A stretch of 64,000 nucleotides of DNA from a virus, in the IMG/VR virus record IMGVR_UViG_3300031236_000004, positions 11,606 through 75,605 of that record; one strand, given 5' to 3'. Under the pieces are notes generated by a model. It did not search any database, was not told where the DNA came from, and worked only from the letters and a program-made list of their open reading frames with translations. Each line of letters opens with the position of its first letter. The first letter of the stretch is position 1. The position numbers and the translations under genes are program-made. Of this stretch, positions 3,342 through 63,470 are shown piece after piece.

Positions 3342-3375
3342 TGTGTTCCCTTCGCTGGAGGCTTATACCGTAAAC

Positions 3376-4809
3376 ATGACCAAGTCGCCTGAGATCGCGG
3401 TAGAGGAGAGGACCACGGCCACGGGGGCGAAGCTGTTCGCGGTGGACGGCATGCACCCGGAGGACGCGGCCATGCTGCAGGCCCTGTACTCCCGCAGCGG
3501 CGACAGCGTCGTCGCGCACCTGGAGAAGGTGAGGGCCCAGGGCAGCGGCAAGTTCATGGCCGGACACTACGTCGGCTACGGTCACAAGAGCATCGGGGAC
3601 TGCGGGTCCACCACGATGTTCGTGGAGGACGTCAGCCTGCTCACCGCGAAGGCGGTCCAGGACAATCCGCTCTACTGCGGGCAGGAGACCTCCACGCGCT
3701 ACCTCGACATGTCGAAGCGGCGCGTGATCGACCCCATCGGAAGCGCGCAGTCCCGCGCGCTCGTCGAGTCGCTGATGGACTTCTACGGCTCCAGCCAGGC
3801 GCACGTACGCGCGCTCGTGGCGGAGCGGCACCCGAGGCGCGAGGGTGAGAACGAGGCGACGTACCAGAAGGCGGTCGCCGCTCGCGCGTTCGACGTCATG
3901 CGCGGCTTCCTGCCGGCGGGCGTCTCGACGCAGCTGAGCTGGCACACCAACCTGCGCCAGGCGGGAGACCACCTGCAGCGGCTCGCGCGGCACCCGTCGG
4001 GCGAGGTCGCCGGCGTCGCCGTCGCGCTGGAGAGCGCGCTCGCCCAGTGCTACGCGTCGAGCGGGTTCGGCAAGAGCAGCGCCGGCGTGAGCGGCGTCGC
4101 GGCGGGCGACGGGGCCGCCGAGCGCGCCGCGTGGGAGGCCTCGACGGCGGAGGCCTTCGCGTACCCGCGCGAGCTGGAACGGCCCCCCACGTACCTCGAC
4201 CTCCACGCCTCGGGGACGCTGTCGCTCGACGTGGCCGCGTGGGGGCGCGTGCTCGCGACCCGCCCGCGCGGGTGCGTGCTGCCGCACTGGATGACCGACT
4301 TCGGGCAGCTCAAGTTCGCCTTCATGCTCGACTTCGGCTCGTTCAGGGACATCCAGCGCCAGCGCAACGGCGTGTGCCGGATGCCGCTGCTGACGACGGA
4401 TCACGGGTTCGAGTCGTGGTACCTGGAGCAGCTCGACGACGGTCTCCGCGCGGCGGCGACGGAGCTGGTCTACGGCCTGAAGTCGCAGCTCGAGGCCGTC
4501 ACGGACAACCAGGTGCTCCGGCAGTACTACGTGCCGATCGGGTTCCGCGTGCAGTGCCAGCTGACGTACGCCCTGCCGGCCCTGCTCTACGTGCTCGAGC
4601 TTCGGACGAGCAAGACAGTTCACCCGACCCTCCGCAAGAAGATGCTCAAGATGGCCGAGTGGTTCCGCGGGCGGTTCCCGGACATCGCCCTCCACGCGGA
4701 CACGGACGAGGACGACTGGACCGTGCGCCGCGGCCTCCACACGATCACCGCCCGGGGCGCCCAGGACGTTCAAGACGCCCGAGGCGGTGATGCGGCGGCG
4801 CCGCGGTGA
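3376..4809 (+). CDS. thyX: FAD-dependent thymidylate synthase, tandem-domain type
   Basis: True start ATG 3376. YGHKSIGD, QETSTRY, RGFLPAG, FGSFRDIQRQR, ELRTSKTVHPTLR match long duplicated ThyX proteins. Confidence 0.85.
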   Translation: MTKSPEIAVEERTTATGAKLFAVDGMHPEDAAMLQALYSRSGDSVVAHLEKVRAQGSGKFMAGHYVGYGHKSIGDCGSTTMFVEDVSLLTAKAVQDNPLYCGQETSTRYLDMSKRRVIDPIGSAQSRALVESLMDFYGSSQAHVRALVAERHPRREGENEATYQKAVAARAFDVMRGFLPAGVSTQLSWHTNLRQAGDHLQRLARHPSGEVAGVAVALESALAQCYASSGFGKSSAGVSGVAAGDGAAERAAWEASTAEAFAYPRELERPPTYLDLHASGTLSLDVAAWGRVLATRPRGCVLPHWMTDFGQLKFAFMLDFGSFRDIQRQRNGVCRMPLLTTDHGFESWYLEQLDDGLRAAATELVYGLKSQLEAVTDNQVLRQYYVPIGFRVQCQLTYALPALLYVLELRTSKTVHPTLRKKMLKMAEWFRGRFPDIALHADTDEDDWTVRRGLHTITARGAQDVQDARGGDAAAPR

Positions 4810-5140
4810 CCTCGAGCGGAGGTCCGGTCGACACCATCACGGCGAGCTGGTGCAGCTGCTCCTCCTCGTCGAAGGTCCACACGCGCAGGGTGTGCGGATA
4901 GGCGCCGTACTCGTCGCGCGCGCAGATCGCGTAGACCTCGACGTCGCGAATGCGCGGGCCGTCGGCCGTCACCACCGTGTGGAGCCGCCGCAGGCAGGTC
5001 AGGCAGACGAAGTCCGTCCCGCCGCTGCCGTGCGGGCACGCCAGGCACGCCGCGCAGTAGGTGCGGCCGTCGCGGTAGATCCAGAGGTCGGCCTCGTTCC
5101 CGCACCGCGAGCACGACGGCTCAGGGCGCCGGCGGGACAT
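4745..5140 (-). CDS. Cys-rich hypothetical protein
   Basis: CSRC, CAACLAC, CLTC; overlaps thyX 3' end convergently. Confidence 0.6.
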   Translation of the reverse strand: MSRRRPEPSCSRCGNEADLWIYRDGRTYCAACLACPHGSGGTDFVCLTCLRRLHTVVTADGPRIRDVEVYAICARDEYGAYPHTLRVWTFDEEEQLHQLAVMVSTGPPLEVTAAPPHHRLGRLERPGRPGR

Positions 5141-6422
5141 CTCGCGATGGTACCTCGCCGGACAGGTGCGCGAGCAGGACGTCGACCGGCTCGACCTTGC
5201 GCCGGCGAGCCTCCGCGGCGACGGCCTGCCTAAGGAGGTCCCCGTAGGCGCCCCCCAGCATGCGGCGGTCGACGCCGACGATCGCGTCGCCGTCGACGAG
5301 GCGGCACGCGAGCTTGTCGCCCCTGAACGTGACCACGACGAAGTCGGGAACGACGCCCATCAGCCGGTCGGCGACGGCGCGCTCCGCCTCCGTCAGGTCG
5401 CCCGGCGCGTGCCGGGCGTCGACCTGCCCCTCGAGCCGCTTCTTGGCGGACTCGGCGGACAGGCCGCCCTTCTCGAGCAGCTCCCTCAGGACCTCGCTGA
5501 CCACCGTCGGCTTGCCGCCGACGCCCTCGACGTCCCTAGCCTCCCGCATCGTTGAGACCGGGACCGCGTCGGCGCCGTGCTCGGCCTCGTACCGCTCTCG
5601 CACGTCCTTGAGCAGCCTCTCGTCGCTGTGCCACTTGAACGCCTTGGCCTCGGGCGCGTTGGCCTTGGCCATGTCGTAGACCCGCGGCGCGGCGAGGTCC
5701 GGCGCGCGGCGGCAGGCGTCCTGCCACATCGCGGCGAGCTTCCAGTGCAGGCTGAACTCGTCCACGAAGCGGCGGTCGCGGTCGAGCGGCAGGTCCTCGA
5801 GGTCGTAGCCGCACGCCAGCTCCTCGAACTCGCGCACGAAGACGCCGCGCGAGAACACCTGGCCGCGCCGGTCTCCGGCGAGCAGGAGCCGCCCCGTGTC
5901 GAGCTTGAGGGTATCGACGGCGCGCGGCTCGTCGATGAACAGGAACTTCGTCCGCAGGACGTCCCAGGCCTCGGTCGGGAGGTTCTCGACCGTGACCATG
6001 AAGTCGGCCTCCCGCGCCGCGAGCTTGCGGGAGCGGAAGGTCATGAGCTGGTTCCCGGCGAGCGGGTGATCGCCGTCGGGCTCCTCGAATGATACGCTCC
6101 AGGACAGGTCGCCGTTGCGGAAGCTGACGTCGAGGCCCGCGCGCACGAGGGCCAGGACCCCGATGCAAAATCCCTCGCCGAAGCGGCCCCGGTGGCCGCC
6201 CGCGGCCTTGTCCGTCTTGCCCAGGATGAGCAGCTTGGCGGGGTCGACGTAGATGCCCGCGGTGGTGACCTCGAGCCGCGCGGTCTTCGGGAAGTGCTCG
6301 ACGGTCATCGCGTGGCCGTCGTCGTCCGCGTCCTTGGCGTTGGACAGCAGCTCGCGGACCCCGGCGTATACGCCCCAGTCGGAGGCGTAGTTCTTGTCGA
6401 TGTTGAGGGAGATCTTGGCCAT
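5121..6422 (-). CDS. GHKL-family (HATPase_c-like) ATPase
   Basis: N box VRELLSNAKDA and G box GRFGEGFCIG in the N-terminal domain. Confidence 0.8.
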   Translation of the reverse strand: MAKISLNIDKNYASDWGVYAGVRELLSNAKDADDDGHAMTVEHFPKTARLEVTTAGIYVDPAKLLILGKTDKAAGGHRGRFGEGFCIGVLALVRAGLDVSFRNGDLSWSVSFEEPDGDHPLAGNQLMTFRSRKLAAREADFMVTVENLPTEAWDVLRTKFLFIDEPRAVDTLKLDTGRLLLAGDRRGQVFSRGVFVREFEELACGYDLEDLPLDRDRRFVDEFSLHWKLAAMWQDACRRAPDLAAPRVYDMAKANAPEAKAFKWHSDERLLKDVRERYEAEHGADAVPVSTMREARDVEGVGGKPTVVSEVLRELLEKGGLSAESAKKRLEGQVDARHAPGDLTEAERAVADRLMGVVPDFVVVTFRGDKLACRLVDGDAIVGVDRRMLGGAYGDLLRQAVAAEARRRKVEPVDVLLAHLSGEVPSRDVPPAP

Positions 6423-6462
6423 GGTTGCCTTCTCTGTGATGCTCGTGGGATAAACGTGCGGA

Positions 6463-6873
6463 GTGTGGAAGCCCGTATCGAAGGTCGACTACGCGACCCT
6501 CGCCCCCCGCGGTCAGATCTTGGTGGTGTCGTGCCCGCTCCGCGAGCGCGCGCTGGACCGGGTCCAGCGCTGGCGCGACAGGGCCTGCGCGATCGCGCCC
6601 GACTCGAGCAAGATCCTGCGCGACGTCGTGCGCGACCTGCTCGCGAACCCGCAGGTCCGCGCGATCGTGTTCGACGGCCCCGCCTGCGGTCGCGCGGCGT
6701 ACGACGCCTTCTGGGCCGGCGCGGCGCAGCCGACCTGGCGCATCGACGAGGAGCACCTGGCCCTCGTGAGGGGTCACGTGGACCTCTACGACGACGACTT
6801 CTCGATGAAGGTTCCCGCCCAGCCGTACTGGCCCGCGCGGATCGCGTACACCGACGATATGGAGATGCCGTGA
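6463..6873 (+). CDS. stand-alone MtrA-like domain protein
   Basis: VVRDLLANPQVRAIVFDG, IDEEHLALVRGHVDL and QPYWP resemble the MtrA-like N-domain of long bacterial thymidylate synthases; RBS GGAG. Confidence 0.55.
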   Translation: MWKPVSKVDYATLAPRGQILVVSCPLRERALDRVQRWRDRACAIAPDSSKILRDVVRDLLANPQVRAIVFDGPACGRAAYDAFWAGAAQPTWRIDEEHLALVRGHVDLYDDDFSMKVPAQPYWPARIAYTDDMEMP

Positions 6874-7514: not shown

Positions 7515-8206
7515 ACGTCATAGGATTGTGTGGAAGAATGCGTAGCGGGAAGAACACGATCGGCTCGATGCTCGTCGAGCACGACCCGCGCGGCGCGACG
7601 CTCGCCTTTGCCGACAAGCTGAAGGAAGTCGTGATCGACTTGTACGGCGCGACGCGCGACGACGTCTACACCGACGAGGGCAAGCGCCGGAAGTCGCCGT
7701 TCCCGCTCCTGAAGTGCCCGGCCTGCCAGTCCATCCAGTGCGAGCGCGTCGCGGATACGCAGGTGCTCTGCCGCAAGTGCACGGCCCTCGGCGAGCCCAA
7801 GTCGTTCCAGACGCACTGGGAGTGGCGGGAGATCTGCCAGTTCGTCGGCACCGAGGGCGGGCGCTTCGTCGACGAGAACGTGTGGGTGCGGCACGCGCTC
7901 AAGCGCGCCGCCGCGGCGCTGGAGGCGAAGACGTCGCCCAGGCGCTTCGTCGCCATCACCGACTGCCGCTTCAAGTCGGAGAAGGCCGCCATCGAGAAGC
8001 ACGGCGGCGTGGTTTGGCGGATTCGGCGCCCCGAGACCGATCACCAGTCGACGGGCCTCGCGGGCCACGCTTCGGAGACCGAGATGGAGACGATCCCGGA
8101 CACCGAGTTCGACGCCGTGATCCGCAACGACGCCTCGCTGGAGGTGCTGCGGGCCAGGGCCGCCGAGCAGCTCGAGCGCTACCTGCGTCGCGGCGAGTCG
8201 AGGTAG
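7511..8206 (+). CDS. deoxynucleoside monophosphate kinase with Zn-ribbon insert
   Basis: ATG 7511 with GGAGG RBS. P-loop GLCGRMRSGKNT, FADKLKE, GTEGGR, ITDCRF, HASE, IRND are typical phage dNMP kinase motifs. Confidence 0.85.
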   Translation: MNVIGLCGRMRSGKNTIGSMLVEHDPRGATLAFADKLKEVVIDLYGATRDDVYTDEGKRRKSPFPLLKCPACQSIQCERVADTQVLCRKCTALGEPKSFQTHWEWREICQFVGTEGGRFVDENVWVRHALKRAAAALEAKTSPRRFVAITDCRFKSEKAAIEKHGGVVWRIRRPETDHQSTGLAGHASETEMETIPDTEFDAVIRNDASLEVLRARAAEQLERYLRRGESR

Positions 8207-8209
8207 CGC

Positions 8210-10892: not shown

Positions 10893-11099
10893 TCACGCCC
10901 GGATCACCCAGCTGCGCTTGAGGAAGCGGGCGAGTCGCCGGAGGTGGCCCCAGTTCAGCATGGAGCGTCCCTTCTCGATCGCCGTGTACTGCGCGCGGGA
11001 CAGCTTGATGCCGCGGGCGACCTGCGCCTGCGTCAGCTTCTTGCGGCGGCGCGTCTCGCGCAGCTCCCTGAGGAGGTTCTCGTATGCGGGGTCGGGCAT
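10893..11099 (-). CDS. XRE-family HTH transcriptional regulator
   Basis: LRETRRRKKLTQAQVARGIKLSRAQYTAIEKG...LRRLA. Confidence 0.85.
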   Translation of the reverse strand: MPDPAYENLLRELRETRRRKKLTQAQVARGIKLSRAQYTAIEKGRSMLNWGHLRRLARFLKRSWVIRA

Positions 11100-11127
11100 T
11101 GCGGACACAATTCTAGTCGCTTGAGGT

Positions 11128-13272
11128 TTATGGCACAAACGCCGGTCCGGCCGCCAGCTTCGCGACCTTCCTGAAGTGCGCCGTGAACCGCGGGAGGTAC
11201 TGCTCGCACACCTTGAAGTTCGACGTGATCAGGTCGTTGGACCACGGCAGCGCGCGTCGGACCTGCGAGCCGTAGCTCTTGTCCCAGACCCTGGAGTCCA
11301 GGATGGCGACGCAGCCGCGGTCGTCCCGCGTGCGGATGAGCCGGCCCACGCCCTGGCGCAGGTCGATGAGCATGTCGACGAGCTGGACGTCGCGGAACGC
11401 GTCTGCCTTGCCGGCGAGCCGCTCGCGGGCCTTGACGATCGGGTCGTTGAACTGCGGGAACGGCAGCTTCGCCATGATGACCAGGCGCAGGTCGCCGCCC
11501 GGCACGTCGACGCCCTCCCAGAACGACTTGGAGCCGACGAGGATCGCGTCGCGCGTCGCCTTGAACTTGCCGAGCGCCGCGTTCGGGTCGCCGTCGTGCG
11601 GGTTGTTGCGGTGGCCCTGCGCGAACGTGCGGCGCGGGAAGCGCTCCTTGAGCGCGGCCGCGAACATGTCCAGCTCGTCGTTCGCGGTCGTCAGGATGAA
11701 CGCGCCGCCGTCGGACAGCTCGACGAGGCGGACGGCCAGCGCGACCCGCCGGCGCATCGAGTCGGCGTAGGCCTCGGCGTCGTAGCGGCTGACCGCGGGC
11801 ATCTCGCGGGGCACGAAGACGAAGCCCTGCGCGTCGTAGTTGAACGACGTCGGCAGGACCTCGGCCTTGACCGGCGCGATCCCGGTCATGCTGGTGACGT
11901 GGTCGAAGCCGCCCTCGACGGCGAGGGTCGCGCTGCACACCACCACCGTCTTGACCGTGGAGAGGTAGCGGCCCGCGATGCCGCCGACGCCGACCGGCGC
12001 GCACTGGATCGCGAAGCGGCCGCGGTCGTCGCTGGTCGAGTAGATGACCGTGTTGGCCAGGATGCGCGCGCGGCGCATCGCCTCCCTGTCCGGATCGCCC
12101 TCCGTCTCGATCGGGTCCGGGTCCACGATCCCCTGCGCGGTCTGCAGGCCGCGGAGCAGGGAGTCGACGCGCCGCTGCGCCTGCGTGAGCAGGGCCTGCT
12201 CGCGGGCCGAGTCGTCGGCCAGCGCCTCCCGGTCGAGCCCGCCCTCGATCCCCTCGACGGGCTCGTCGCCGACGTAGATGTCGTCGCTGACCTCGTCGGG
12301 CTCGTCGGGCTCGTCGGCGACCAGGTAGCTCGCGAGGGTCTTGGCGATCTCGAGCAGCGACGCCCGGAGGAGCCCGATGACCTCGTCGGCGGGGCCGCCG
12401 GGGAACACGGGCGCATCGCGCGCCTTGGACTCGTAGCCGCGGTCGGTGACGCCCTCGAACATCCCCTCCCACGGCCGGAGGAGCTTCTTCGTCGCGGGGA
12501 AGTCCCGGCCCGTCCGCTTGAGCACGTCCCACAGCTGGCTGATCGAGTCGTCGCCGACCTTGTGGGAGAACGCGGACCGGATGCCGGCCGCGAGCGTGTG
12601 GGCCTCGTCGATGACGAGCACGTCGTACGGTCCGCCGACCATCTTGCCGTGGCCGAAGAACATCTCGGCGCCGAGCACGTGGTGGTTGGTCACGACGAGG
12701 CGAGAGTCGGCAACCGCGCGCTTGAGGCGGATGTAGCCGCAGTTGTTGTAGTTGCCGCAGCGCTTGCCGACGCAGTCCTCGGCCGTGGCCTGCGACCACC
12801 AGCGCGGCGGCGCGCCGGGGTACTCCGCTCGGTCGCCGTACATCGAGTGACCGATGAACGTCTCAAACCTGGCGTCGTTCTCGCCGCTCTTCTCGAGGAG
12901 CGAGAAAGCTGCTGCAGCGCATGCGTAATTGGAACGGCCCTTCAAGGGCGTCGCAATGGTCGGTCCGGTTACGTTTTTGATCACGACATGTACTGCTGGG
13001 AAGTCCTTGTTGATGATCTGATCTTGGAGTGCACGCTTCGCGGTCGCGACGACGACTCGACGGCCCTTCGCCAAGAGCGTAGGCACGAGGTACGCAAGGC
13101 TCTTGCCCAAGCCGACCGGTCCTTCACAGAAATAAGCGCCGCCTTCTCGGAGGACTTGTTCGATCGATGCGGCCATTTGCAATTGCGATGGCCTCACCTC
13201 ACGGATCAATCCGAGCGCCGGGTCGGACAGGAGCATTTGGCTGGTAAGCATGGATGTTGGTTCCATAAACAT
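11128..13272 (-). CDS. dinG: DinG/YoaA-family Fe-S helicase
   Basis: Q motif RPSQ, EGPVGLGKSLAYL, four Fe-S Cys, VTNHH, IDEAH, CSATL, FWEGVDVPG, QGVGRLIR. Start may be 13250. Confidence 0.92.
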   Translation of the reverse strand: MFMEPTSMLTSQMLLSDPALGLIREVRPSQLQMAASIEQVLREGGAYFCEGPVGLGKSLAYLVPTLLAKGRRVVVATAKRALQDQIINKDFPAVHVVIKNVTGPTIATPLKGRSNYACAAAAFSLLEKSGENDARFETFIGHSMYGDRAEYPGAPPRWWSQATAEDCVGKRCGNYNNCGYIRLKRAVADSRLVVTNHHVLGAEMFFGHGKMVGGPYDVLVIDEAHTLAAGIRSAFSHKVGDDSISQLWDVLKRTGRDFPATKKLLRPWEGMFEGVTDRGYESKARDAPVFPGGPADEVIGLLRASLLEIAKTLASYLVADEPDEPDEVSDDIYVGDEPVEGIEGGLDREALADDSAREQALLTQAQRRVDSLLRGLQTAQGIVDPDPIETEGDPDREAMRRARILANTVIYSTSDDRGRFAIQCAPVGVGGIAGRYLSTVKTVVVCSATLAVEGGFDHVTSMTGIAPVKAEVLPTSFNYDAQGFVFVPREMPAVSRYDAEAYADSMRRRVALAVRLVELSDGGAFILTTANDELDMFAAALKERFPRRTFAQGHRNNPHDGDPNAALGKFKATRDAILVGSKSFWEGVDVPGGDLRLVIMAKLPFPQFNDPIVKARERLAGKADAFRDVQLVDMLIDLRQGVGRLIRTRDDRGCVAILDSRVWDKSYGSQVRRALPWSNDLITSNFKVCEQYLPRFTAHFRKVAKLAAGPAFVP

Positions 13273-13411
13273 GATAAGACATTGAACGCGGACCGGGAAG
13301 CGTACCTCGCCAAGAAACGCGATAAGGAGCGCGCGTTATCGCGCAGACCCCCGGAGGGGCGTCGGAACAGTAAACATTGTTCTCGGCAGCGAATCCTTGT
13401 ACCAAATAGCG

Positions 13412-30451: not shown

Positions 30452-30452
30452 C

Positions 30453-34023: not shown

Positions 34024-34046
34024 GCGACAGGTTTATCACGCCGACG

Positions 34047-39638: not shown

Positions 39639-39661
39639 GGCCGGACAGGAGGGAGCCACCC

Positions 39662-39667
39662 TATAAT
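39662..39667 (+). promoter_or_regulatory. TATAAT -10-like box inside a CCCTA/TAGGG hairpin
   Basis: AT-rich island between divergent ruvC and 39716 genes. Confidence 0.4.
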
Positions 39668-39715
39668 TTTAGGGCGCCGCGTTGCAAGTCTGACCCGCCT
39701 CTTTGAGGAGAACCC

Positions 39716-44397: not shown

Positions 44398-44403
44398 TAG
44401 GTC

Positions 44404-47375: not shown

Positions 47376-50126
47376 GTGGCGGAAGCAGTCTACAGGTCGA
47401 CGATCGCGCAGGGGTTGTTCTACGTGGACGGCAAGCCCCTGTCGCTCGCGGACTACCCGATGTTCGAGGCCGTGTACGACGGCCAGTACTCGCGCATCCT
47501 GCTCAAGACTGCACGTCAAGTTTCCAAAAGTACGACGCTCGCCGCCTTCATGATCGCGGAGGCCATCGCGGTCGTCCCGTTCAAGTCGTACTACGTCTCA
47601 CCCACGCAGGAGCAGACCCGGAAGTTCTCGCACACGCGCGCTGCGAAGATCCTGGCGTACAGCCCAGACGTGCGGAAGAAGTACATCGGCCCGGAGTCCA
47701 TCGACAACGTCTACCTGCGCATACTCAAGAACGGCTCGGAGATGGCGTTCACGTACGCCATGGACGACCCGGACAGGGCGCGCGGCTACTCGGCGGACCG
47801 AACGTGTTTCGACGCGACTGCCGAAGTCCTCACGCGCGTGGGTTGGAAGCTCGTGCGCGCCTTGACGCCGACCGACGAGGTCGGGGTGCTCGCACCGGAC
47901 GGCGCGCTCGAGTGGCACCGACCCACGCGACTCATTCAGTTCCGCCACAAAGGCTCGATGGTTTGCTTCACCCACCACGGCGTTTCACTTCGAGTGACCT
48001 CCAACCACAAGATGTGGGTGAACTTTAGAGTCAAGACCTCACCTACCTTCAAGACGCCAGATGTTTGGGAGTTCGTTGAAGCGGGGTCTCTGGCGAACAC
48101 GACGCGCATGGGCTTCAAGTTCACGGGTCGCGCTGTCCTGCGCGGGAGTCAGGTGCCGCAGGTTAAGGTGCTCGAGGGCGGGGAAGGCTATGAAGTAAGT
48201 CGGCGTTCGCTCTCGATCCCATTTCTGGAATTCGCCGAGTTGGTGGGTTGGTACCTCTCCGAGGGCTCGATCGTCTGGAAGATGCTCAACGGTCGTCGCC
48301 AAGCGCGCGGCGGCGCAGGTGTGTTCTCGAACGGGTTCGCACCGCGCCGCGCGCCGAAGGGCGTCTCGATCGTGCAATGTCCGGGACCCCATGCAGACCG
48401 CATCAAGCGGTGCCTCCGTGCCTGCGGCCTCGTGTTTTCTGCACACCCAACTGAATACCAAACCAGCAGGGGCGCACGCCTCACGCACGCGTACGTCGTC
48501 ACATCCGCACAGCTCGGCAGCTACTTCGAGGGGCAGGGGCTCTGCCGGGATAAGCACATTCCAGAAGAGTTCTTTGAACATCCAGCCGCACTGACGCGGC
48601 TGTTGGAGAGCCTTCACTTCGGAGATGCGACCATGCGCGATGGGACACTGCGCACGCGTTCGAAGCGTCTGGCGGATGACGTCCACCGCGCGTGGACCCT
48701 GCTCGGGCGGTCTTCTGCCATCCACACGCGAATGATGGCGCCGCGCCCCGGCGCTCCTTTGGAGCCTCTGTACGAGGTTCAGGCCTTCAAATACGACTAC
48801 CACGTGTTCTGGCGGCCCGAATTCGAGTCGAAGAAGCGCGTCGTCGTAGAACAGGTTGTAGACGAGGACGTCTTCTGCTTCACCGTCAAACACCATCGTC
48901 CGATCGTGCGCGGCGGATTTGGACAGAGACCTATCGTTACGGGTCAGTGCTTCGACGAAGTGCAGGACATGGTCTTCGAGGCGGTCATCCCAGTCATCGA
49001 GGAGTGCATGGCGGCGTCGAAGTATCAGTACTCCTCGTACTGCGGCACGCCCAAGACGATGGAGAACACCATCGAGGTCCTGTGGGGGCTCTCGTCGCAG
49101 ACCGAGTGGTGCATGCGGTGCGACGCGTGCTCGAAGTGGACGTTCGTCGCGAGCACGAAGGCGATCGGGAAGAAGGGGCTCATCTGCCTCTCGTGCGGCG
49201 GCCTCCTGAATCCGCGCAACGGCAAGTGGATCGACATGGCGAGCGGCCAGGGCATCAAGGGCTTCCACATCAGCCAGGCGATCATGCCGACGAACGTACC
49301 GGCCGCGTGGCAGCCGGGGACGGAGGGGTACGACGTCGCCGTCGACCGCTGGGAGAAGCTGCTCTACAAGATGGAGTCGCCGCTCTACGGCGAGTCCAAG
49401 TTCCTCAACGAGTGCATCGGCGTCAGCACGTCGACCGGCGTCCGCCTCCTCACCAAGGAGATCCTCGAGGCCCTCTGCGACGACAAGCTCGCCATCACGC
49501 GGCTGCCGACCCCGACCTCGCTCCAGGGCATCGTCCGCGTCGTCGCCGGCGTCGACTGGTCCGGCGGCGGCGGCGAGGTCAAGGGCAGCGAGGGCCTCTA
49601 CAAGTCCCGCACGGTGTTCCACGTCTGGGGTCAGCAGCCGGACGGCAGGCTCCGCACGCTCACCTCGAAGGTCTTCCCCAACGGGCATGCCACCGGCTGG
49701 ATCGACGAGATCGTCGAGTTGTGCAACGCCTGGGGCGTTCAGATGGTCGGCTGCGACGCCGGTGAGGGCGCGCTCGCCAACTCGTTCCTGCGCCAGCGCC
49801 TCGGCGACCAGCGGGTCCTCGCGTTCAAGTACCAGATGATGTCGAAGCCGCTCGAGTGGAACCCCGCCGCGCTGACGTACAACGTCGACAAGACCACGAT
49901 GGTCGACACCTACGCGCGCATGCTGCTCCACAAGCAGGTCGTCTACCCGAACCTCCGGGACGCGAAGGTGGCCATCGACGACATCCTCAACGTCTACGAG
50001 GAGATCACGCCGAGGGGCATGAGGGTCTGGAAGCACTCGCCGGTGATGCCTGACGACAGTCTTCACGCCCAAATTTTCGCGTGGTTAGCCTGGGGCGTGC
50101 TGTCGGGGAACCTGAAGTTCAACTAG
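47376..50126 (+). CDS. terL: terminase large subunit (GpA-like) with intein
   Basis: ARQVSKS (Walker A), RARG, spliced ADRTCFDEVQD (Walker B), GTPKT, CDAC/CLSC Zn finger, GVDWS nuclease motif, DDSLHA. Confidence 0.88.
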   Translation: MAEAVYRSTIAQGLFYVDGKPLSLADYPMFEAVYDGQYSRILLKTARQVSKSTTLAAFMIAEAIAVVPFKSYYVSPTQEQTRKFSHTRAAKILAYSPDVRKKYIGPESIDNVYLRILKNGSEMAFTYAMDDPDRARGYSADRTCFDATAEVLTRVGWKLVRALTPTDEVGVLAPDGALEWHRPTRLIQFRHKGSMVCFTHHGVSLRVTSNHKMWVNFRVKTSPTFKTPDVWEFVEAGSLANTTRMGFKFTGRAVLRGSQVPQVKVLEGGEGYEVSRRSLSIPFLEFAELVGWYLSEGSIVWKMLNGRRQARGGAGVFSNGFAPRRAPKGVSIVQCPGPHADRIKRCLRACGLVFSAHPTEYQTSRGARLTHAYVVTSAQLGSYFEGQGLCRDKHIPEEFFEHPAALTRLLESLHFGDATMRDGTLRTRSKRLADDVHRAWTLLGRSSAIHTRMMAPRPGAPLEPLYEVQAFKYDYHVFWRPEFESKKRVVVEQVVDEDVFCFTVKHHRPIVRGGFGQRPIVTGQCFDEVQDMVFEAVIPVIEECMAASKYQYSSYCGTPKTMENTIEVLWGLSSQTEWCMRCDACSKWTFVASTKAIGKKGLICLSCGGLLNPRNGKWIDMASGQGIKGFHISQAIMPTNVPAAWQPGTEGYDVAVDRWEKLLYKMESPLYGESKFLNECIGVSTSTGVRLLTKEILEALCDDKLAITRLPTPTSLQGIVRVVAGVDWSGGGGEVKGSEGLYKSRTVFHVWGQQPDGRLRTLTSKVFPNGHATGWIDEIVELCNAWGVQMVGCDAGEGALANSFLRQRLGDQRVLAFKYQMMSKPLEWNPAALTYNVDKTTMVDTYARMLLHKQVVYPNLRDAKVAIDDILNVYEEITPRGMRVWKHSPVMPDDSLHAQIFAWLAWGVLSGNLKFN
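47805..48947 (+). mobile_element. terminase intein (381 aa), LAGLIDADG, C-terminal Gln
   Basis: DRT|CFDATAEVLT...VTSNH...VFCFTV...TGQ|CFDE; LVGWYLSEG; low GC3. Confidence 0.88.
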
Positions 50127-50701
50127 GCCGGCGCCTCGGCGTGCTTCTGGATCCCGGGGCCGTAGATCTCCATCAGGCGCAGGAAGACGCCGCGACACGC
50201 GTGCGCGTCGGCGAGCGCCGAGTGCGCGTTCTCGTAGGGGATCTTGAAGTAGGCTGCCATCGTGACCAGCTTGACGTTGACCACCAGCCCGGCGCGCAGC
50301 AGGGGCATCGCGAGCGAGACGGTGTCGAGGGAGTGGTAGCTGCCGGGCCACCGCATCGAGTGGTCCGCCAGGGCCGCCTCCAAGAACGCCTTGTCGAACG
50401 GCGTGTTGTGGCACACCAGCATCGTGTCCTTGGCCATCAGCAGCACGTTGATCAGCGCGTCGTGCGCCGAGACGGCCTCGGCGGCCCACTTCTCGGCGTT
50501 GTAGCCGTTGATGGCCGCGGCCTCCGGGTCGACGGGCTTCTTGGGGAACGTCTTGGCCACGTACTCGCCGAGCACGGTCTTGCCGCTGGGGTCGGTGCGC
50601 ACGCACGCAACCTCGACGAAGTCGTGCTTCGTCGCGGACAAGCCGCCCGTCTCGAAGTCCAGGAAGAGCAGGTTGTGGTCTTTCAGCGCGGGACGAGCCA
50701 T
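50123..50701 (-). CDS. DEDDh 3'-5' exonuclease (DnaQ-like)
   Basis: LDFETGG, CHNTPFD, LDT, HSALADA. Confidence 0.92.
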   Translation of the reverse strand: MARPALKDHNLLFLDFETGGLSATKHDFVEVACVRTDPSGKTVLGEYVAKTFPKKPVDPEAAAINGYNAEKWAAEAVSAHDALINVLLMAKDTMLVCHNTPFDKAFLEAALADHSMRWPGSYHSLDTVSLAMPLLRAGLVVNVKLVTMAAYFKIPYENAHSALADAHACRGVFLRLMEIYGPGIQKHAEAPA

Positions 50702-50767
50702 CGATGGACCTCTGCGTCCACTTATACCAACGATGCTAGGACTTTTTCCAGGGTTTATGGCACCGAC

Positions 50768-50962
50768 CTAGCGAGACTGCAGGTGCCTGTCCCGCCTCGG
50801 CAGGTACTGCCCGTGCACGCCCGCGAACGACCCGTGCCCCTCGAACAGGCCGCCGCAGAAGCAGCAGACGTAGTCCCGGTATCGCGGGCGGGTGTGGATG
50901 CAGTGGTGCGGGTGCTCCTCGTTGTCCTCGGGCGACGAGGGGCAGGTGCCCTCGCCCCTCAC
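50768..50962 (-). CDS. small Cys/His-rich protein
   Basis: GTG 50962 (GTGA overlap); HHCIH, VCCFCG. Confidence 0.5.
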   Translation of the reverse strand: MRGEGTCPSSPEDNEEHPHHCIHTRPRYRDYVCCFCGGLFEGHGSFAGVHGQYLPRRDRHLQSR

Positions 50963-51666
50963 GGCTTCCGCACCCACTGGAAGCGGGGGTCAGTGAGGTA
51001 GTCCTCGTCAGCGCACTGCCGACACAACGAGAAGATCGCAACCCGTCGCACGTCCCCGGGCTCGAACTGGTCGAACGTCATCTTCGCGATGCCGGTCGCA
51101 TCGTGCGCGGGGCGCATCTCGTGCGGGTGCGTGCCCCACTGGGAGCACGTCATCACCGCCAGCCGCTCCAATTCGGCGATCACCTTGAGGTGATCTGGGT
51201 CCGTAGTACATGCGGACCATCCACGTGCGAGACGTCCAATCGCTTCGCGCAGGACCTGGACGTGCGGGACGCGCTTCTCTTTGTTGACCTGCTCGCCCGT
51301 ATACGTGCCGGACGCGATCGCATCAAGCCCGGCCTGCGTGGGGCGCCACACCGCCGCAGGGGAGCCCGTCCGCGTGGGCCGCGTTTCCCCGGTATCGCGA
51401 GCCAGGCCGTCTCTCGCGAGGACGCCGAATCGGGCACTGAACGACGACGAGAACCGCCCGTAGCGAACCTGGGTCGCGTCAGGAGTTGCGCCATCCGGCT
51501 CGACGGCGACCAGGTGCTGCATGATCTCGAGGCGCGCCTGATCCTGCGTCTTGGCGGCAATCTTCGCTGCCGCCTTCGACGTGGCCGTCCCGTTGTGCGG
51601 CAGGGAGCCCAGTCCGCCGTCTTCGTCGTCCGTGTCGTCCTCATCACTGCCGTCGTCGTTGCTCAT
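50959..51666 (-). CDS. hypothetical protein with wHTH-like segment
   Basis: Acidic N-terminus; SARFGVLARDGLARDTGETRPTRTGSPAAVW. Confidence 0.65.
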   Translation of the reverse strand: MSNDDGSDEDDTDDEDGGLGSLPHNGTATSKAAAKIAAKTQDQARLEIMQHLVAVEPDGATPDATQVRYGRFSSSFSARFGVLARDGLARDTGETRPTRTGSPAAVWRPTQAGLDAIASGTYTGEQVNKEKRVPHVQVLREAIGRLARGWSACTTDPDHLKVIAELERLAVMTCSQWGTHPHEMRPAHDATGIAKMTFDQFEPGDVRRVAIFSLCRQCADEDYLTDPRFQWVRKP

Positions 51667-54600
51667 GATGCCTGTGCCTCCTCTTCCTCATCCTCTTTGG
51701 TGTCGAACATCGAATCCGCCTGCTTGCCGTCCTCGTCGACGACGAAGTCGTTGAGCGCGTCCTGGTCGAGCAGCTCCATCAGCTCCTGCTCCTGCGTCAT
51801 GGCGAGCCCCGGGTTCTTCTTGAGGTAGTCGTCGAGCGCGATGGTCTCGCCGTAGCTCGGGCCGACCGCGATGTCGTACGCGAAGTCGACCGGCAGCCAG
51901 GCGTACTTCTCGCGGACGCGCTGGACGCAATAGTAGTCGAAGAACGCCTTCGCCTTGTGCAGGTGCTTCTTCTTGATCACGCCCACGATCGAGTCGTGGA
52001 CCGTGATGCAGAGCCGGCCACCCAGCTCGTGGATGTGCTCGAAGATCTCGATGAGCTGCGCGATGACGATGTCCGACGACGTCGACTGGATCTTCATGTT
52101 CTTGCCGCGGCGCTCGGCCTGACCGCGGAAGAAGCCGTTGACGCCCTGGAGCGGGAACCGGCGGCGGCGGCCGAACAGCGTCTCGACGAAGCCCTTCGCG
52201 TGGATCTGCGAGACGACCTCGTCCATGTAGTTCTTCAGCGACGGGAACCGCTCGAACAGCTTGTCGATGATCTGCTGCGCGCGTTCCTCGCTGACGCCGG
52301 CGGTCTCGGCGATCTTCTTCGCCATCGCGCCGTAGAGGATGCCGAACACGACGCGCTTCACCGTCGTTCGCAGCGCGTTCATCGACAGGCCGAACTCGGG
52401 GAGGATGTAGTCCGTGTTCTCCTTCTTGGCCTCGACCTCCGCGTACGGGATGCCGAAGATCTCCTGCGTGAACCAGCTGTGGACGTCCAGCCCGTCGTTG
52501 AGCGCCTTGATCAGCTCCTCGTCCGGCGCGTACGCCGTGAACACGCGGATCTCGGCGCCCCTCCAGTCGACGTTGAACACCACCTCCTCGTCCGGATCGT
52601 CCGGGATGAAGATCTTCTTGATGTTCACGCCCGCCAGCTTCTTGGGCGTGTTTTGCATGTTCACATTCGACGAGGACGTGCGCCCGGTCGACGTGCCGTG
52701 CAGGTGGAAGCTGGTGTGCAGGAAGCCGTCGTAGGCCGAGAGGTCCTTGATGTCCTTGACGAACCCGGTGAGCGCCTTGTGCGCCGCCCGGTACTCGAGC
52801 AGCGTCCTGGCGAACAGGCACCGGGTCTGCTCGGCGATCGCCTTGAGCGTCTTCTTGTCCGTCTTGCGCTTGCCGGACTTGAGGTTCTTCTCGGCGAACG
52901 TGTGGCGCTTCACGCGCGGGCCGCTGCCCTCGAACACGCCGACGTCGAACAGCACCTCCGCGACGTGCTCGGTGGAGTTCGGGTTGAACGCCACGCCCTT
53001 CTCGGACGAGACCGTGGCCCGCTGGCCAGGCAACTTGGTGCCCTCCCACTGGGCCTCCAGGAGCTTCCGCTTCGCCTTGACGATCTCGGTGAGGTCGACC
53101 TCGAGCTTGTCGATGTAGGGCCGGTCGACGCGGAACCCGTCGAACTCCATCTTGCCGAGCGCGCGCGACGCGGGGATGCAGTGGGTCTGCATCAGGCTGC
53201 GCGCGTTGGCGTGGAAGCCCTCGGTCTTCATCCGGCCGAACTGGTGGCGGAGCAGGCGCCGGGTCAGGTCGGTGTCGATTGCCGCGTAGGTGTCCAGCGT
53301 GTCGATGGGCACCCGCTCGTACCCCGCGTCCATCGCGCTCTTCTTCTGCTCGCGCTTGGTCCCGAAGACCTCGCGCGCGACCTCGGTCTTGGTCATGGTG
53401 TAGACCAGGCCCTCCTCGATGCCGACGACGTCCTTCTTGGGCTTGCCCTTCTTGACGTTCGCCAGCGCGGCGTGCTTCTCCGCCTCCTCGGGGGTGAGCT
53501 GCTCGGCCAGCTCCTGGACCTTGTCCGCGTAGTTGCCGAACATCGGGAAGTAGGACCGCCCGAGCGTCTTGAGGCCGTAGGACCCCGTCATGTCCTCGCG
53601 CAGCAGGTGCTCGCCCAGCAGCGAGTCCCACATGACGTTGTTGACGCGCCAGCCGTGGCGCAGCTCGAGGAACTTGAGGTCGAACTTGGCGTTGTGAAAG
53701 ACCTTGGGCTTGGCGCACTCGAGCACGCGCCGGACGTGCGCGACGACCTGCTCCAGCTCCTGGGGCGTCCACGGCGCCTCGCGGTGGAACAGCGGAACGG
53801 CGCCCGCGCGTCCGGTGTCCCACGCGAACGACACGCACAGGACCTTGGCGTCCTCGCGGTGCGGGTTGAGCGTGTTCGTCTCGACGTCGACCGCGATCGC
53901 GCAGTGGGCGGCCGACGGGGCGCCCTCGACGACGTGGTTGATGATGTGGTCGCACAGCCGGCCTACCTCGTCGACCGTCTTGGGGATCCAGTAGTCCCGG
54001 GTCAGCTCCTCGAGCGTCGTGTTGGCGCCGACCTCGTCCGCGCCGCCGGCGATGCGGATCGCGCGCACGAAGTCCGCGTAGAACAGGTTGTAGAGGCCTG
54101 TCTTGGCGACCATGAGCTTGGTCGAGAACGTCGGCAGGACCTTGTAGATCTGGCCCTCGATCTCGACGTCGAGCAGGCGGCCGCGCGCCTCCATGAACCG
54201 CTCGGCCTTGTAGCCGGTGGCCTTGAGCGCGGTCGCGCCGAACGCCAGGATGATCTTGGGCTGCGCGTTCTTGATCTTGGCGCGCAGGAACGACGAGCAC
54301 CGCTGGATCGTCGACGCGTTCGCGGTGGCGCTCTGGTCCTTCCCCTCCTCGACCTGGCACTGGACGGCGTAGGTGTCCCAGCGCTTGAGGTGGGCCATCT
54401 TCAGCTTGCCGCCGTTCTTCTTGTCCAGCTCGCGGAGATCGCGCCACGCGGTGCGGATGATGCGGCCGCCTCGGCCGTAGAACATCGCCTTGTTGTTCAC
54501 CGACCAGGACGACGGCGACTCGGACACCATCATGATGTCGACGAGGCCGGAGGCGCCCTCGCCGAGCATCTGCCGCTTCTTGTATAGGGCGCAGCCCTCG

Positions 54601-54704
54601 CAGTGCCCGGACTTGCAGTCGGGGAGCTGGTTCTCGGGGAGGAGCGACGGGTCGTCGAGGGAGACGACCGGCAGCTTCACCTTGGGCTTCTTGGCGTCAG
54701 CCAT
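51663..54704 (-). CDS. polA: family A DNA polymerase with N-terminal family-4 UDG-fold and 3'-5' exonuclease
   Basis: CEGC...GEG...SESP...QC...C (UDG4 fold); VDVET, HNAKFD, YAAID (exonuclease); TGRTSS, DWRGAEIR, KRVVFGILYG, HDS (polymerase). Confidence 0.93.
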   Translation of the reverse strand: MADAKKPKVKLPVVSLDDPSLLPENQLPDCKSGHCEGCALYKKRQMLGEGASGLVDIMMVSESPSSWSVNNKAMFYGRGGRIIRTAWRDLRELDKKNGGKLKMAHLKRWDTYAVQCQVEEGKDQSATANASTIQRCSSFLRAKIKNAQPKIILAFGATALKATGYKAERFMEARGRLLDVEIEGQIYKVLPTFSTKLMVAKTGLYNLFYADFVRAIRIAGGADEVGANTTLEELTRDYWIPKTVDEVGRLCDHIINHVVEGAPSAAHCAIAVDVETNTLNPHREDAKVLCVSFAWDTGRAGAVPLFHREAPWTPQELEQVVAHVRRVLECAKPKVFHNAKFDLKFLELRHGWRVNNVMWDSLLGEHLLREDMTGSYGLKTLGRSYFPMFGNYADKVQELAEQLTPEEAEKHAALANVKKGKPKKDVVGIEEGLVYTMTKTEVAREVFGTKREQKKSAMDAGYERVPIDTLDTYAAIDTDLTRRLLRHQFGRMKTEGFHANARSLMQTHCIPASRALGKMEFDGFRVDRPYIDKLEVDLTEIVKAKRKLLEAQWEGTKLPGQRATVSSEKGVAFNPNSTEHVAEVLFDVGVFEGSGPRVKRHTFAEKNLKSGKRKTDKKTLKAIAEQTRCLFARTLLEYRAAHKALTGFVKDIKDLSAYDGFLHTSFHLHGTSTGRTSSSNVNMQNTPKKLAGVNIKKIFIPDDPDEEVVFNVDWRGAEIRVFTAYAPDEELIKALNDGLDVHSWFTQEIFGIPYAEVEAKKENTDYILPEFGLSMNALRTTVKRVVFGILYGAMAKKIAETAGVSEERAQQIIDKLFERFPSLKNYMDEVVSQIHAKGFVETLFGRRRRFPLQGVNGFFRGQAERRGKNMKIQSTSSDIVIAQLIEIFEHIHELGGRLCITVHDSIVGVIKKKHLHKAKAFFDYYCVQRVREKYAWLPVDFAYDIAVGPSYGETIALDDYLKKNPGLAMTQEQELMELLDQDALNDFVVDEDGKQADSMFDTKEDEEEEAQAS

Positions 54705-54756
54705 GGCGCGATGTTTGTACCATAAACATACCTGGCATCGTGTCCTCCTGACTGAC

Positions 54757-59107: not shown

Positions 59108-59124
59108 CGGCTCCTCGTCGCGTG

Positions 59125-60305: not shown

Positions 60306-60452
60306 GTCACTACCTTTGCGGGTGTGAAGGTTGGAGGGTCAAGCTATCGGGCCCGGTGTTCGTTTGACAAGCTCGACGCCAAAGTTTCGTAGCACTAGGG
60401 GTTGTGGTGTCATTTGGGACACCACTAGACGGTAGTCTAACTACGCGATAGG

Positions 60453-61550
60453 TTGTGTCTACGCATGCACACGAAAGCTCCGCGTACCTCGGCCACGTAC
60501 TACGCCGACATCGCCCGTACGCTGCTGGTCGACGACCCGGCGGAAGAGCGGAAGCTGCTGCGGCGCTGGCAGGCGCGGGGCGACGTGGCCGCCCGCGACG
60601 CCATCGTCAAGACGCACCTCCGCTTCGTCGTGAAGATGGCGCACAAGCGCACCAAGGACCCAGAGGCGGTCAAGGACTACATCGCGGCGGGCAACCTGGG
60701 CCTCCTCAAGGCGGCCGACAAGTTCGACTGCGAGCGCAAGCCGTACATCCGCTTCCTGACCTACGCGGGCTGGTGGGTCTACGAGGAGATGTCCAATCAA
60801 GACTACACCATGGCCTCGCTCGTCCACGTGCCGGCGCACCGGCACAAGACGCAGCGGCGCCAGGCGCGCGAGTTCCGCGCCGCGCTGCAGGAGTACGGGC
60901 CCGACAAGGTCGCCGAGCACGCCGGCGACGCCGTCGAGCGGCTGGTCGAGCTGCGCGCCCAGGCCAAGAAGGCCCAGGGCCCCGCGCTGCGGCGCGTCGA
61001 GAAGCAGATCCGCTTCTACGAGGCGATCCAGGAGCCCGGCCTTCCCGAGGGCGTCGTCACCACGATCGACGCGGTGCGCAACGCGCCCGACCTCCCCGAG
61101 ACCGAGCCCGCCGTCAGCTACGACGCGGAGCGGCTGCGCGGCACGGTGCGCCAGGCCATCGCGCGGCTGCCGCTGCGCGAGCAGACCGTCCTGAACCAGT
61201 GCTTCGGGGTCAAGGACGAGCCGCGCAACCTCGTCCAGATCGCGGCGATGATGGGCGTGTGCTCAGAGCAGGTGCGCCTGCTCAAGATCCGGGGCATGCG
61301 CCTGCTCCACCGCGAACTGGTGCTCGGCGCGGTGTCGAGCCTCCCGCTCCTCGAGCGGACGGTGATCGAGCGGAGCTTCGGGCCCGAGGGCGAGCCGCAG
61401 ACCGCCGAGACCGTGGCCGGCGACATGAAGTTGACCGTCGCGTGCGTGCGGCGCATCCAGCAGGCGAGCATGCGACTCCTGCAGTCGGAGCTGCACTCGC
61501 GCGTAGGGATGTCGATCGAGCCGCTGGCGGCGATGACCGCGGCGACCTAG
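60453..61550 (+). CDS. sigma-70-family factor with tandem duplicated region 4
   Basis: Region 1.2 (EERKL), THLRFVVKMA, GNLGLLKAADKFD, RFLTYAGWWV, and two LP-x3-E/Q...FG...MRLL units. Confidence 0.9.
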   Translation: MCLRMHTKAPRTSATYYADIARTLLVDDPAEERKLLRRWQARGDVAARDAIVKTHLRFVVKMAHKRTKDPEAVKDYIAAGNLGLLKAADKFDCERKPYIRFLTYAGWWVYEEMSNQDYTMASLVHVPAHRHKTQRRQAREFRAALQEYGPDKVAEHAGDAVERLVELRAQAKKAQGPALRRVEKQIRFYEAIQEPGLPEGVVTTIDAVRNAPDLPETEPAVSYDAERLRGTVRQAIARLPLREQTVLNQCFGVKDEPRNLVQIAAMMGVCSEQVRLLKIRGMRLLHRELVLGAVSSLPLLERTVIERSFGPEGEPQTAETVAGDMKLTVACVRRIQQASMRLLQSELHSRVGMSIEPLAAMTAAT

Positions 61551-62014: not shown

Positions 62015-62016
62015 TG

Positions 62017-62675: not shown

Positions 62676-62678
62676 GCG

Positions 62679-62924
62679 TTACTCCCTCGCGTGCGCCAGG
62701 GCGCGCTCGCGGCTGATGCGGGTGAACTTGAGCTGGTGGAGGGGCGTCCCCATCATGAGGTCGCCGACGAGGCCGACGAACTCCGCCCCGATGGCGTCGT
62801 GCGACCAGCGCGGGTCGTTGGTGGCCGCGAACCACAGCGACCGGATGTCCCGATAGCGCGCGGCGATGTCGACCACGACGCGCGCGGCGACGCCGCTGCG
62901 CCCGCTCGCCTTGCGGCGGGTCAC
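62679..62924 (-). CDS. hypothetical protein
   Basis: GTG 62924 overlaps upstream stop. Confidence 0.55.
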   Translation of the reverse strand: MTRRKASGRSGVAARVVVDIAARYRDIRSLWFAATNDPRWSHDAIGAEFVGLVGDLMMGTPLHQLKFTRISRERALAHARE

Positions 62925-63079
62925 GGGCTTGGTTCTAGCGCCTTGGTTCCGCACCTGGGACATATTGGCACGTTGGCGTCGAGCCTGAGCGGCGACCTGC
63001 ATGACGGGCACGATGGGGTCTTCTCTTCGGCGGCCGTCTTGGCCGTCTTGGGGTCAACGTCGACGCCGTACTTCTCCAT
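62921..63079 (-). CDS. 52-aa Zn-ribbon peptide
   Basis: MEKYGVDVDPKTAKTAAEEKTPSCPSC...CPRCGT; below track cutoff. Confidence 0.65.
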   Translation of the reverse strand: MEKYGVDVDPKTAKTAAEEKTPSCPSCRSPLRLDANVPICPRCGTKALEPSP

Positions 63080-63088
63080 GCGTCGACT

Positions 63089-63457
63089 CTAGCGCAGCGT
63101 GACCTTCTTGTTGGCGCCGACCCGCAGGCCGCGGAGGACCGCGTAGGTCTCGGGGGCGCCCTGCGCGTTCAGGAACTTCTCCGCCTTGGCCGGGGTCTCG
63201 AACTCGTGGACCTCGCCGACGACGATGAAGATCTTCTTGGACTTCGCGAGGCGTTCCGCCTTGGCCGCGGCCTTCTCGGCCTCCGACATGTCGGCGGCCT
63301 TCTTGCGGGGCGGCTGAGGCGGCGCCGCCGGCTTGGCGTCCGCGTGGCCCGCGTGCGACTCGGTGGTCGGCGCCGCGGGACCGCTCATGGCGGCGGCGGC
63401 CGCTGCTGCGCCGAGCGTGGAGGCGAGGGACGGCTTGTGGCCTTGTGCTTGCGTCAT
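63089..63457 (-). CDS. hypothetical protein
   Basis: Ala/Pro/Lys-rich N-terminus, compact C-terminal domain. Confidence 0.7.
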   Translation of the reverse strand: MTQAQGHKPSLASTLGAAAAAAAMSGPAAPTTESHAGHADAKPAAPPQPPRKKAADMSEAEKAAAKAERLAKSKKIFIVVGEVHEFETPAKAEKFLNAQGAPETYAVLRGLRVGANKKVTLR

Positions 63458-63470
63458 AAACATCCTCGTA

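Follow-up and report, generated by a model that had tools for sequence, protein, structure and literature searches.

A 19-bp dyad, ATGTTTAY-N3-RTAAACAT, recurs at gene junctions in a 64,000-nucleotide (nt) stretch of phage DNA, referred to here as the window, which comprises bases 11606-75605 of an 86.6-kb IMG/VR virus record (IMGVR_UViG_3300031236_000004; 68% GC, estimated to be 46% complete). The architecture of the dyad, its excess over chance, its placement close to promoters and its conservation across a clade of related phages were observed directly. In the explanation that best accommodates these data, to which we give about an even chance, the dyad is a dispersed operator of a dimeric phage regulator that acts mainly as a repressor, and the best candidate for this regulator is a 68-amino acid (aa) XRE protein encoded in the window. 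Here, it is protein binding, the identity of XRE as the binder and repression that we infer.

Architecture and placement of the dyad

The element had been described in a first-pass annotation as a 15-bp motif in nine copies, and every one of these sequences was found where it had been placed. Seven fit a single pattern, GYYNGYNNNRTAAAC, exactly, whereas the copies at 3361 (GCTTAT...) and 13361 (GTCGGA...) break it at position 5 or 6. All nine do lie at gene junctions, and three of them (11126-11140, 34031-34045 and 50753-50767) touch or run into the stop codon of the preceding gene. The claim that such a motif would not arise by chance holds for the full pattern, which occurs 7 times where 0.09 would be expected and never more than twice in any of 100 dinucleotide shuffles, but not for the AT-rich hexamer RTAAAC alone (9 observed, 7.2 expected); the excess lies in the fact that every RTAAAC in the window is accompanied by a related upstream block. 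With a weight matrix derived from four related genomes only, eight of the nine window sites scored at least 12 bits, compared with 0.2 in shuffles. This leave-one-out matrix reduced the 13361 copy to a lone half-site and added a weak tenth copy at 60358-60372. The whole record holds two more copies beyond those in the window.

When matches to the pattern in five genomes (G000-G003 and G005) were aligned, conservation was seen just outside the 15-mer, with T before it and A-T after it, and no conserved -35 or other flanking element was present 15-45 nt upstream. The symmetrized matrix yielded the 19-bp sequence given above, in which mirrored AT flanks enclose a 15-bp core, GTTTAY-N3-RTAAAC. At a threshold of 14 bits, this matrix located 91 sites in the 763 kb scanned, compared with 2-5 in reversed or shuffled controls. 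In an assumption-free test, the partner half GYTKRY was found beside RTAAAC solely at a spacer of 3 bp, where it accompanied 9 of 13, 21 of 54, 16 of 62, 16 of 42 and 11 of 44 hexamers in the five genomes, with essentially none at the other spacers between 0 and 12. The block GYYNGY of the first-pass annotation is the weaker half-site of this dyad. The remark that some copies are quasi-palindromic was likewise borne out, and perfect palindromes such as GTTTATCGGATAAAC were recovered with the relaxed matrix. Motif frequency in coding DNA had been proposed as a check on the motif; a partner half accompanied 65% of RTAAAC hexamers in intergenic DNA (90/139) and 8% of those in coding DNA (6/76).

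Genes were called with a codon-model caller that covered 86-93% of each genome. Start codons are approximate, and a few apparently coding sites, such as that at 3361, are start-codon miscalls. Intergenic DNA contained 88 of 101 sites (~87%). Divergent junctions carried a site in 25 of 64 cases (39%) and co-directional junctions with a gap in 47 of 354 (13%), compared with 1 of 26 convergent junctions.

Relatives of the source genome were found by means of DNA polymerase (63-75% amino acid identity), and each gave 3-13 pattern matches against 0-1 for a reversed-pattern control. The genomes are syntenic, and despite this divergence of the polymerase the sites are kept at orthologous junctions, nine of which carry a site in at least four genomes (4-5 of 5, or all four that hold the gene family). 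A site is present in 5/5 genomes at a 433-aa gene, the exonuclease gene, the SNF2 helicase gene and the portal operon, the last two sharing one divergent site. Other well-kept junctions are those of a 136-aa gene divergent from the 433-aa gene, of the DinG-like helicase and the tail operon (again one divergent site), of a 69-aa gene and of the Dam methylase, and sites are also carried by the ThyX, XRE, DNA polymerase A and sigma/Pam3-gp34-like junctions. Given that the sites are kept before replication, nucleotide-metabolism and some morphogenesis operons, “regulon,” the term of the first-pass annotation, is a fair description. The motif is present in at least nine related genomes, further members of the clade having been identified by way of their XRE genes: G006 gave 14 strand matches, the complete genome G007 contained 27 sites (0 in the control), and the more distant G008 and G009 (53-58% GC) contained 4 and 6 sites, respectively. 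The dyad accompanies ~10-27 transcription units per genome and is kept across phages of 53-68% GC. No dyad sites were found in Salmonella phage Arash, a distant cultured relative.

The window sites, given without strand unless noted, include three at divergent junctions. The site at 3361..3375 (GCTTATACCGTAAAC, 22.9 bits) directly adjoins the ATG of ThyX (3376-4809, +; 0 nt), is 19 nt away from that of 2772-3341 (-) and has orthologs in G001, G005 and G007. The core at 6441..6455 (GCTCGTGGGATAAAC, 17.2 bits) has on one side 5121-6422 (-), whose ATG is 18 nt away, and on the other 6463-6873 (+), whose GTG is 7 nt away, and this junction carries a site in 5/5 genomes. The site at 13256..13270 (GTTGGTTCCATAAAC, 23.0 bits) separates the DinG-like helicase gene (-) from the tail-chaperone/tape-measure operon (+), with a site in 4/5 genomes and in all further relatives examined. 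Nearby, the degenerate copy at 13361..13375 (GTCGGAACAGTAAAC; <9 bits with the leave-one-out matrix) retains the right half-site alone, 36 nt before the tail-chaperone ATG at 13412; its ortholog in G003 is a full site.

Three sites were read on the minus strand. That at 11126..11140 (GTTTGTGCCATAAAC, 21.4 bits) overlaps the TAA stop of a helicase gene, and the XRE start follows 26 nt downstream. The core at 34031..34045 (GTCGGCGTGATAAAC, 12.7 bits) follows the TGA of the upstream gene by 1 nt and precedes the ATG of a 71-aa gene (33808-34023) by 7 nt, with a site at this junction in 4/4 genomes. The core at 50753..50767 (GTCGGTGCCATAAAC, 12.7 bits) abuts the TAG of 50768-50977, 51 nt before the ATG of the exonuclease gene (50123-50701), and is matched in 5/5 genomes. 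The best copy (ATGTTTGTACCATAAACAT, 28.3 bits) occupies 54713..54727 within a near-perfect 19-bp palindrome (54711-54729), 8 nt before the ATG of DNA polymerase A; a polymerase-upstream site is also present in G001, G003 and G005, in either “orientation.” The weak candidate copy at 60358..60372 (GTTCGTTTGACAAGC, 10.5 bits) lies between the divergent Pam3-gp34-like and sigma genes, and its orthologs in G003, G001 and G005 are clear sites (GCTTGCCAAGCAAAC). Finally, the site at 63447..63461 (GCTTGCGTCATAAAC, 22.6 bits), 58 nt before the ATG of 63089-63388 (-), has near-identical orthologs in G001, G003, G005 and G006.

Orientation, spacing and a second motif

The first-pass annotation had seven copies pointing toward the next gene and two antisense, a distinction that loses its meaning for a dyad. 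At co-directional junctions (n = 50), the better half was gene-proximal in 27 cases and distal in 22 (p = 0.57). Perfect half-sites were divided 48 to 44 in their orientation relative to the downstream gene (p = 0.75), and the weaker half was equally good in co-directional and divergent junctions. The distance from core to start codon is spread continuously from 0 to ~60 nt and differs between orthologous genes (1 versus 5 nt and 5 versus 7 nt), and that from core to recognizable -10 hexamers ranges from 3 to 30 nt depending on the promoter. Such variable geometry suits a repressor and is at odds with an activator or promoter element that acts from a fixed position.

The clade has a further motif enriched in intergenic DNA, ccTAnnATT, which does have a strongly preferred orientation (45 sense versus 10 antisense; p = 2e-6) and peaks sharply 5 nt ahead of start codons, as a -10 hexamer for leaderless mRNAs would. 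The motif thus probably represents a class of promoters with a -10 element only. In the window, it occurs at 44392-44398 (TATCATT, 5 nt before the ATG at 44404), 7521-7527 and 11109-11115, and a site that faces both ways, CTATAATTTTAGGG, is located at 39661-39671 between RuvC and 39716. In the complete relative G003, ccTAnnATT lies mainly before head and structural genes. Where ccTAnnATT accompanies a dyad, the gap between the end of the core and the hexamer downstream is exactly 6 or 10 nt.

Consensus sigma-70 promoters were not above chance in the scans, and the dyad itself, two mirror-image blocks 3 bp apart, has a geometry other than that of -35 and -10 elements with a ~17-bp spacer. A terminator was found directly upstream of 5 of 50 dyad sites and 10 of 230 controls. 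The first-pass annotation had proposed either a sigma promoter or an XRE operator. The second of these fits the data, whereas the first is disfavored by the lack of -35/-10 geometry and of orientation bias, by the equal conservation of both halves in co-directional junctions and by the promoter-like behavior of the separate ccTAnnATT motif.

XRE and competing explanations

The candidate regulator is the 68-aa protein encoded at 10893..11099 (-), a Cro/C1-type helix-turn-helix (HTH) protein with Pfam matches to HTH_31 and HTH_3 and PHROG matches to transcriptional repressor families. Exactly one Cro/C1-type (HTH_3) gene, the XRE ortholog, is present in each genome, including two complete genomes, and its HTH/recognition region is invariant across the clade. 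No conserved protein of the ParB, HTH_17 or RHH_1 type was detected in the clade genomes. As the first-pass annotation had noted, the XRE gene has its own copy of the motif. In this genome and at least five relatives (G001, G003, G005 and G006 among them), the dyad lies 26 nt before the XRE ATG and 10 nt before a TAnnAT hexamer, spanning roughly -37 to -23. The hexamer in the window is the -10-like TAGAAT at 11110..11115 (-), midway between the dyad core and the ATG at 10 nt from each; it belongs to the ccTAnnATT class (11109-11115, 14.7 bits), and XRE orthologs have TATCAT, TATGAT or TAAGAT at the same offset.

Structure prediction is consistent with a two-fold symmetric reader. XRE was predicted to form a homodimer through its C-terminal strand, with the HTH left free, at an ipSAE of 0.53 compared with 0.00 for the best of three controls; the predicted local distance difference test score of the partner was 89, and the runs agreed 100%. 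Of proteins solved as one-chain pairs, 20 of 30 reached this ipSAE, compared with 1 of 23 solved as single chains, although the XRE family has solved dimers and the result may partly reflect likeness to them. The nearest solved relatives are small dimeric regulators, namely DBP48, the QseC controller and C.AhdI.

In the proposed mechanism, a two-fold symmetric XRE dimer would occupy the dyads and thereby cover the -35/spacer region of some promoters, the -10/start region of others or the first 20 nt of the RNA. Its presence there would repress or time replication and nucleotide-metabolism genes and some morphogenesis operons. The predicted target units are ThyX, the DinG-like helicase, the exonuclease, DNA polymerase A, the Dam methylase, the SNF2 helicase/portal-RNA polymerase (RNAP) operon, the tail operon and XRE itself, which would be subject to negative autoregulation. 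No integrase is conserved among the clade genomes examined, and the phages look virulent, so a temporal regulator is a more likely role for XRE than an immunity repressor.

Several observations weigh against this assignment. In G002, G008 and G009, XRE is kept and dyads are found elsewhere but not upstream of XRE, and G007 has only a degenerate half-site there; thus, autoregulation would not be universal. Given that the motif and the XRE recognition helix are both unchanged even in the distant G008 and G009, co-variation between them is uninformative. Many phage proteins lack a family assignment, which makes another binder possible, and the phage encodes its own RNAP and two sigma-like proteins. 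In addition, a ccTAnnATT -10 lies near only ~8 of 88 dyad-gene pairs, leaving most dyad-linked genes with no recognizable promoter, and the AT-rich dyad may overlap or itself supply the promoter melting region.

A possible, if doubtful, alternative is that the same dyad operator is read by something other than XRE, either an unannotated phage protein or an exploited host transcription factor, which might activate at the -10-only promoters. All of the dyad evidence applies equally to such a reader, and the missing XRE-upstream sites in three genomes and the preponderance of proteins with no family assignment also speak for it. Activation would find further support in the position of the dyad, which is centered near -30 or -26 at the promoters of XRE and of an 83-aa gene; the core-to-hexamer distances of 6 or 10 nt place it where a -35 element would lie. 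Activation from ~-30 is, however, incompatible with the ~20 of 80 gene-site pairs in which the start codon follows the core by 0-11 nt, and no other conserved classical DNA-binding domain was found. With respect to a host factor, the motif is kept over a GC range in which the hosts probably differ, and this favors a phage-encoded reader.

It is rather unlikely that the dyad is a promoter, or a promoter core, for the phage RNAP with one sigma-like factor. Here, the RTAAAC half would serve as the -10/melting element, often of leaderless or short-leader mRNAs. The machinery for such a promoter is encoded, in the form of a fused beta-beta' RNAP and two sigma-family proteins, and RNAP subunits and one sigma are abundant in Arash virions (PMC10585845). 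The chance-level occurrence of the sigma-70 consensus is compatible with this proposal, as is the lack of any other recognizable -10 at most dyad-linked genes. In 12 gene-site pairs, the start codon follows the core by 5-8 nt with no Shine-Dalgarno sequence, and other pairs have a Shine-Dalgarno sequence 6-13 nt beyond the core. In four genomes, a terminator-like T-tract precedes the dyad at the Dam methylase junction, and dyads and ccTAnnATT occupy largely different genome modules. The dyad, however, has no preferred orientation, unlike ccTAnnATT and the tgGTATAAG motif of Arash considered below. Its gene-distal half and AT flank are conserved even where there is no transcription in that direction. 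Moreover, the core is 0-1 nt from the start codon at several genes, orthologs share no fixed start-site register, and the upstream DNA lacks -35 conservation.

A more specific form of this proposal is improbable. It would make the dyad a new symmetric, compact, -35-less promoter class for a fused RNAP that is probably carried in the virion, with a 365-aa sigma-like factor placing one region-4 HTH on each half-site and with the capacity to fire leaderless mRNAs.

An RNA-level role, in which the palindrome would act as a hairpin or A/U-rich leader serving as a translational operator or enhancer or as a processing site, is very improbable. In its favor, many copies are separated from the following start codon by only 0-25 nt, and several of these lack a Shine-Dalgarno sequence. 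However, the two halves vary independently (pairing of 5.04 observed versus 5.15 for shuffled halves), the mean hairpin energy is -1.5 kcal/mol, and sense and antisense strands pair equally poorly. The lack of covariation and the instability of the hairpin make such a role unlikely. In addition, some sites lie upstream of a -10 hexamer and so outside the transcript, and Rfam gave no match.

Two further candidates were rejected. An intrinsic terminator or repetitive extragenic palindrome-like hairpin, which would call for a stable GC-rich stem with a T-tract behind it and for enrichment at gene ends and convergent junctions, is contradicted by the hairpin energy, by the single site among 26 convergent junctions and by the lack of a T-tract after the motif. 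N4-type hairpin promoters have a 5-7-bp stem, in which pairing has to be preserved by compensating changes, and a 3-nt loop; this candidate was discarded because the halves of the dyad vary independently and many copies have 2-4 mismatches between them.

The source phages and known systems

The gene content of the window is that of a large tailed phage, and its DNA is represented in peat-metagenome runs. A megablast search of the window against phage records gave no match. The phage belongs to an undescribed clade of large (~150-190 kb) uncultivated peat and soil phages that carry their own bacterial-type RNAP and two sigma-like factors. In addition to the 68-aa XRE and DinG-like helicase genes, the window encodes proteins of nucleotide and nucleic acid metabolism (ThyX, deoxynucleoside monophosphate kinase and RNase HII) and of replication (DnaQ-like exonuclease, DNA polymerase A, primase and a PD-(D/E)XK nuclease), together with an intein-bearing ribonucleotide reductase, RuvC and an intein-bearing terminase. 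DNA polymerase A (51663-54704, -) has an N-terminal uracil-DNA-glycosylase-superfamily domain (residues 54-196) followed by 3'-5' exonuclease and polymerase domains. The intein of the ribonucleotide reductase (35925-39062, -) contains a LAGLIDADG endonuclease; the adjacent open reading frame at 34047-35906 (-) also has a LAGLIDADG domain. In the terminase-like gene at 47376-50126, the GpA_ATPase match is confined to the N terminus.

One sigma-like gene (23175-23933, +; Sigma70_r3, phrog_351) is part of the tail-chaperone/tape-measure/baseplate block, where it sits inside the baseplate/M23-peptidase genes, a position that matches that of the virion-associated sigma gp10 in Arash. The second (60453-61550, +) encodes a sigma-70 family protein with two tandem region-4 matches (Pfam, two stretches); the recognition helices of the two copies differ (CSEQVRLLK and TVACVRRIQ), and the weak dyad copy lies upstream. 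The fused beta-beta' RNAP (1,450 aa) is encoded at G000:C1:80955-85301, ~5.3 kb past the right end of the window and directly after the portal gene. It is of a fused, shortened multisubunit type with Rpb2_6 (E = 4e-47) and Rpb1_1/2 domains, and an ortholog is found at L031:9358-13755. Its nearest cultured relatives are Arash gp206 and proteins of Vibrio phages (~34% identity over the full length); gp206 is the most abundant protein of Arash virions (PMC10585845).

Rfam and tRNA scans of the window were empty. Between the PD-(D/E)XK-family gene and the 63447 dyad, a stretch of 333 nt (63462-63794) has no called gene and no tRNA or Rfam match; the corresponding interval in G003 is 29 nt. The sequence CTATAAT at 30414-30420 (-), within the low-GC stretch 30001-31000, is conserved in G003 and lies in or antisense to the called gene 29951-30451 (+). 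Downstream of it, no gene is called on the minus strand; it may belong to a short antisense or non-coding RNA, or the gene call may be wrong.

With regard to known systems, Cro/C1-type dimers and C proteins such as C.AhdI offer a parallel in a ~70-aa single-HTH protein predicted to dimerize, a short inverted repeat whose halves are a small, constant distance apart and a site ahead of the regulator's own gene. C proteins and Cro/CI act at a single operator or a few, next to the genes that encode them, whereas here 10-27 sites are dispersed over each genome and binding is a prediction. The lack of an integrase or ParB makes an immunity system improbable. The global repressors KorB (RK2 OB) and P1 C1 act at a dozen or more dispersed operators, and their varying position relative to promoters across a mobile genome is shared by the dyad, the sequences not being the same. 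OB is a short TTTA...TAAA-type palindrome read by a ParB-family protein, and the P1 C1 operators are asymmetric; given that no ParB domain is present, the dyad is not a KorB system.

The stoperators of Cluster A mycobacteriophages are likewise short sites spread in many copies over gene junctions of the phage genome and read by the phage (L5/Bxb1-type immunity) repressor (PMC9283540, PMC6550527). They are asymmetric 13-bp sites of temperate phages, oriented with transcription and read by a monomer (PMC9283540). The dyad is not a stoperator because it is symmetric and orientation-free; the phages that carry it also look virulent.

Phages with their own multisubunit RNAP, such as phiKZ and AR9, use phage-specific promoter motifs (PMC7598289). 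The likeness to the dyad lies in a short conserved AT-rich motif before many genes of a phage with its own RNAP and sigma-like factors. However, the motifs of Arash, phiKZ and AR9 are directional and have a fixed start-site distance, neither of which is true of the dyad, and ccTAnnATT is their better counterpart. In Arash (OQ632216.1), ~30 promoter-like copies of tgGTATAAGtaaagTGTA with an upstream G (ggGTATAAG/tgGTATAAG) all lie on one strand, with the genes, ~20-30 nt before the Shine-Dalgarno sequence; bare GTATAAG gave 40 matches (4 plus, 36 minus). This motif looks like an extended -10-type phage promoter, and neither it nor promoters are mentioned in the Arash paper (PMC10585845).

Together, the dyad and ccTAnnATT outline the transcription program of phages that may depend mostly on a polymerase of their own, and the dyad provides a concrete regulon for an uncultivated clade, with one 19-bp palindrome, one candidate 68-aa regulator and defined conserved targets. 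If XRE does bind, a Cro-like protein would time expression across the whole genome of a large virulent phage, which would extend known principles and overturn none. We class the dyad regulon as a probable dispersed operator regulon of a phage-encoded HTH regulator, a known type, in an undescribed RNAP-carrying phage clade.

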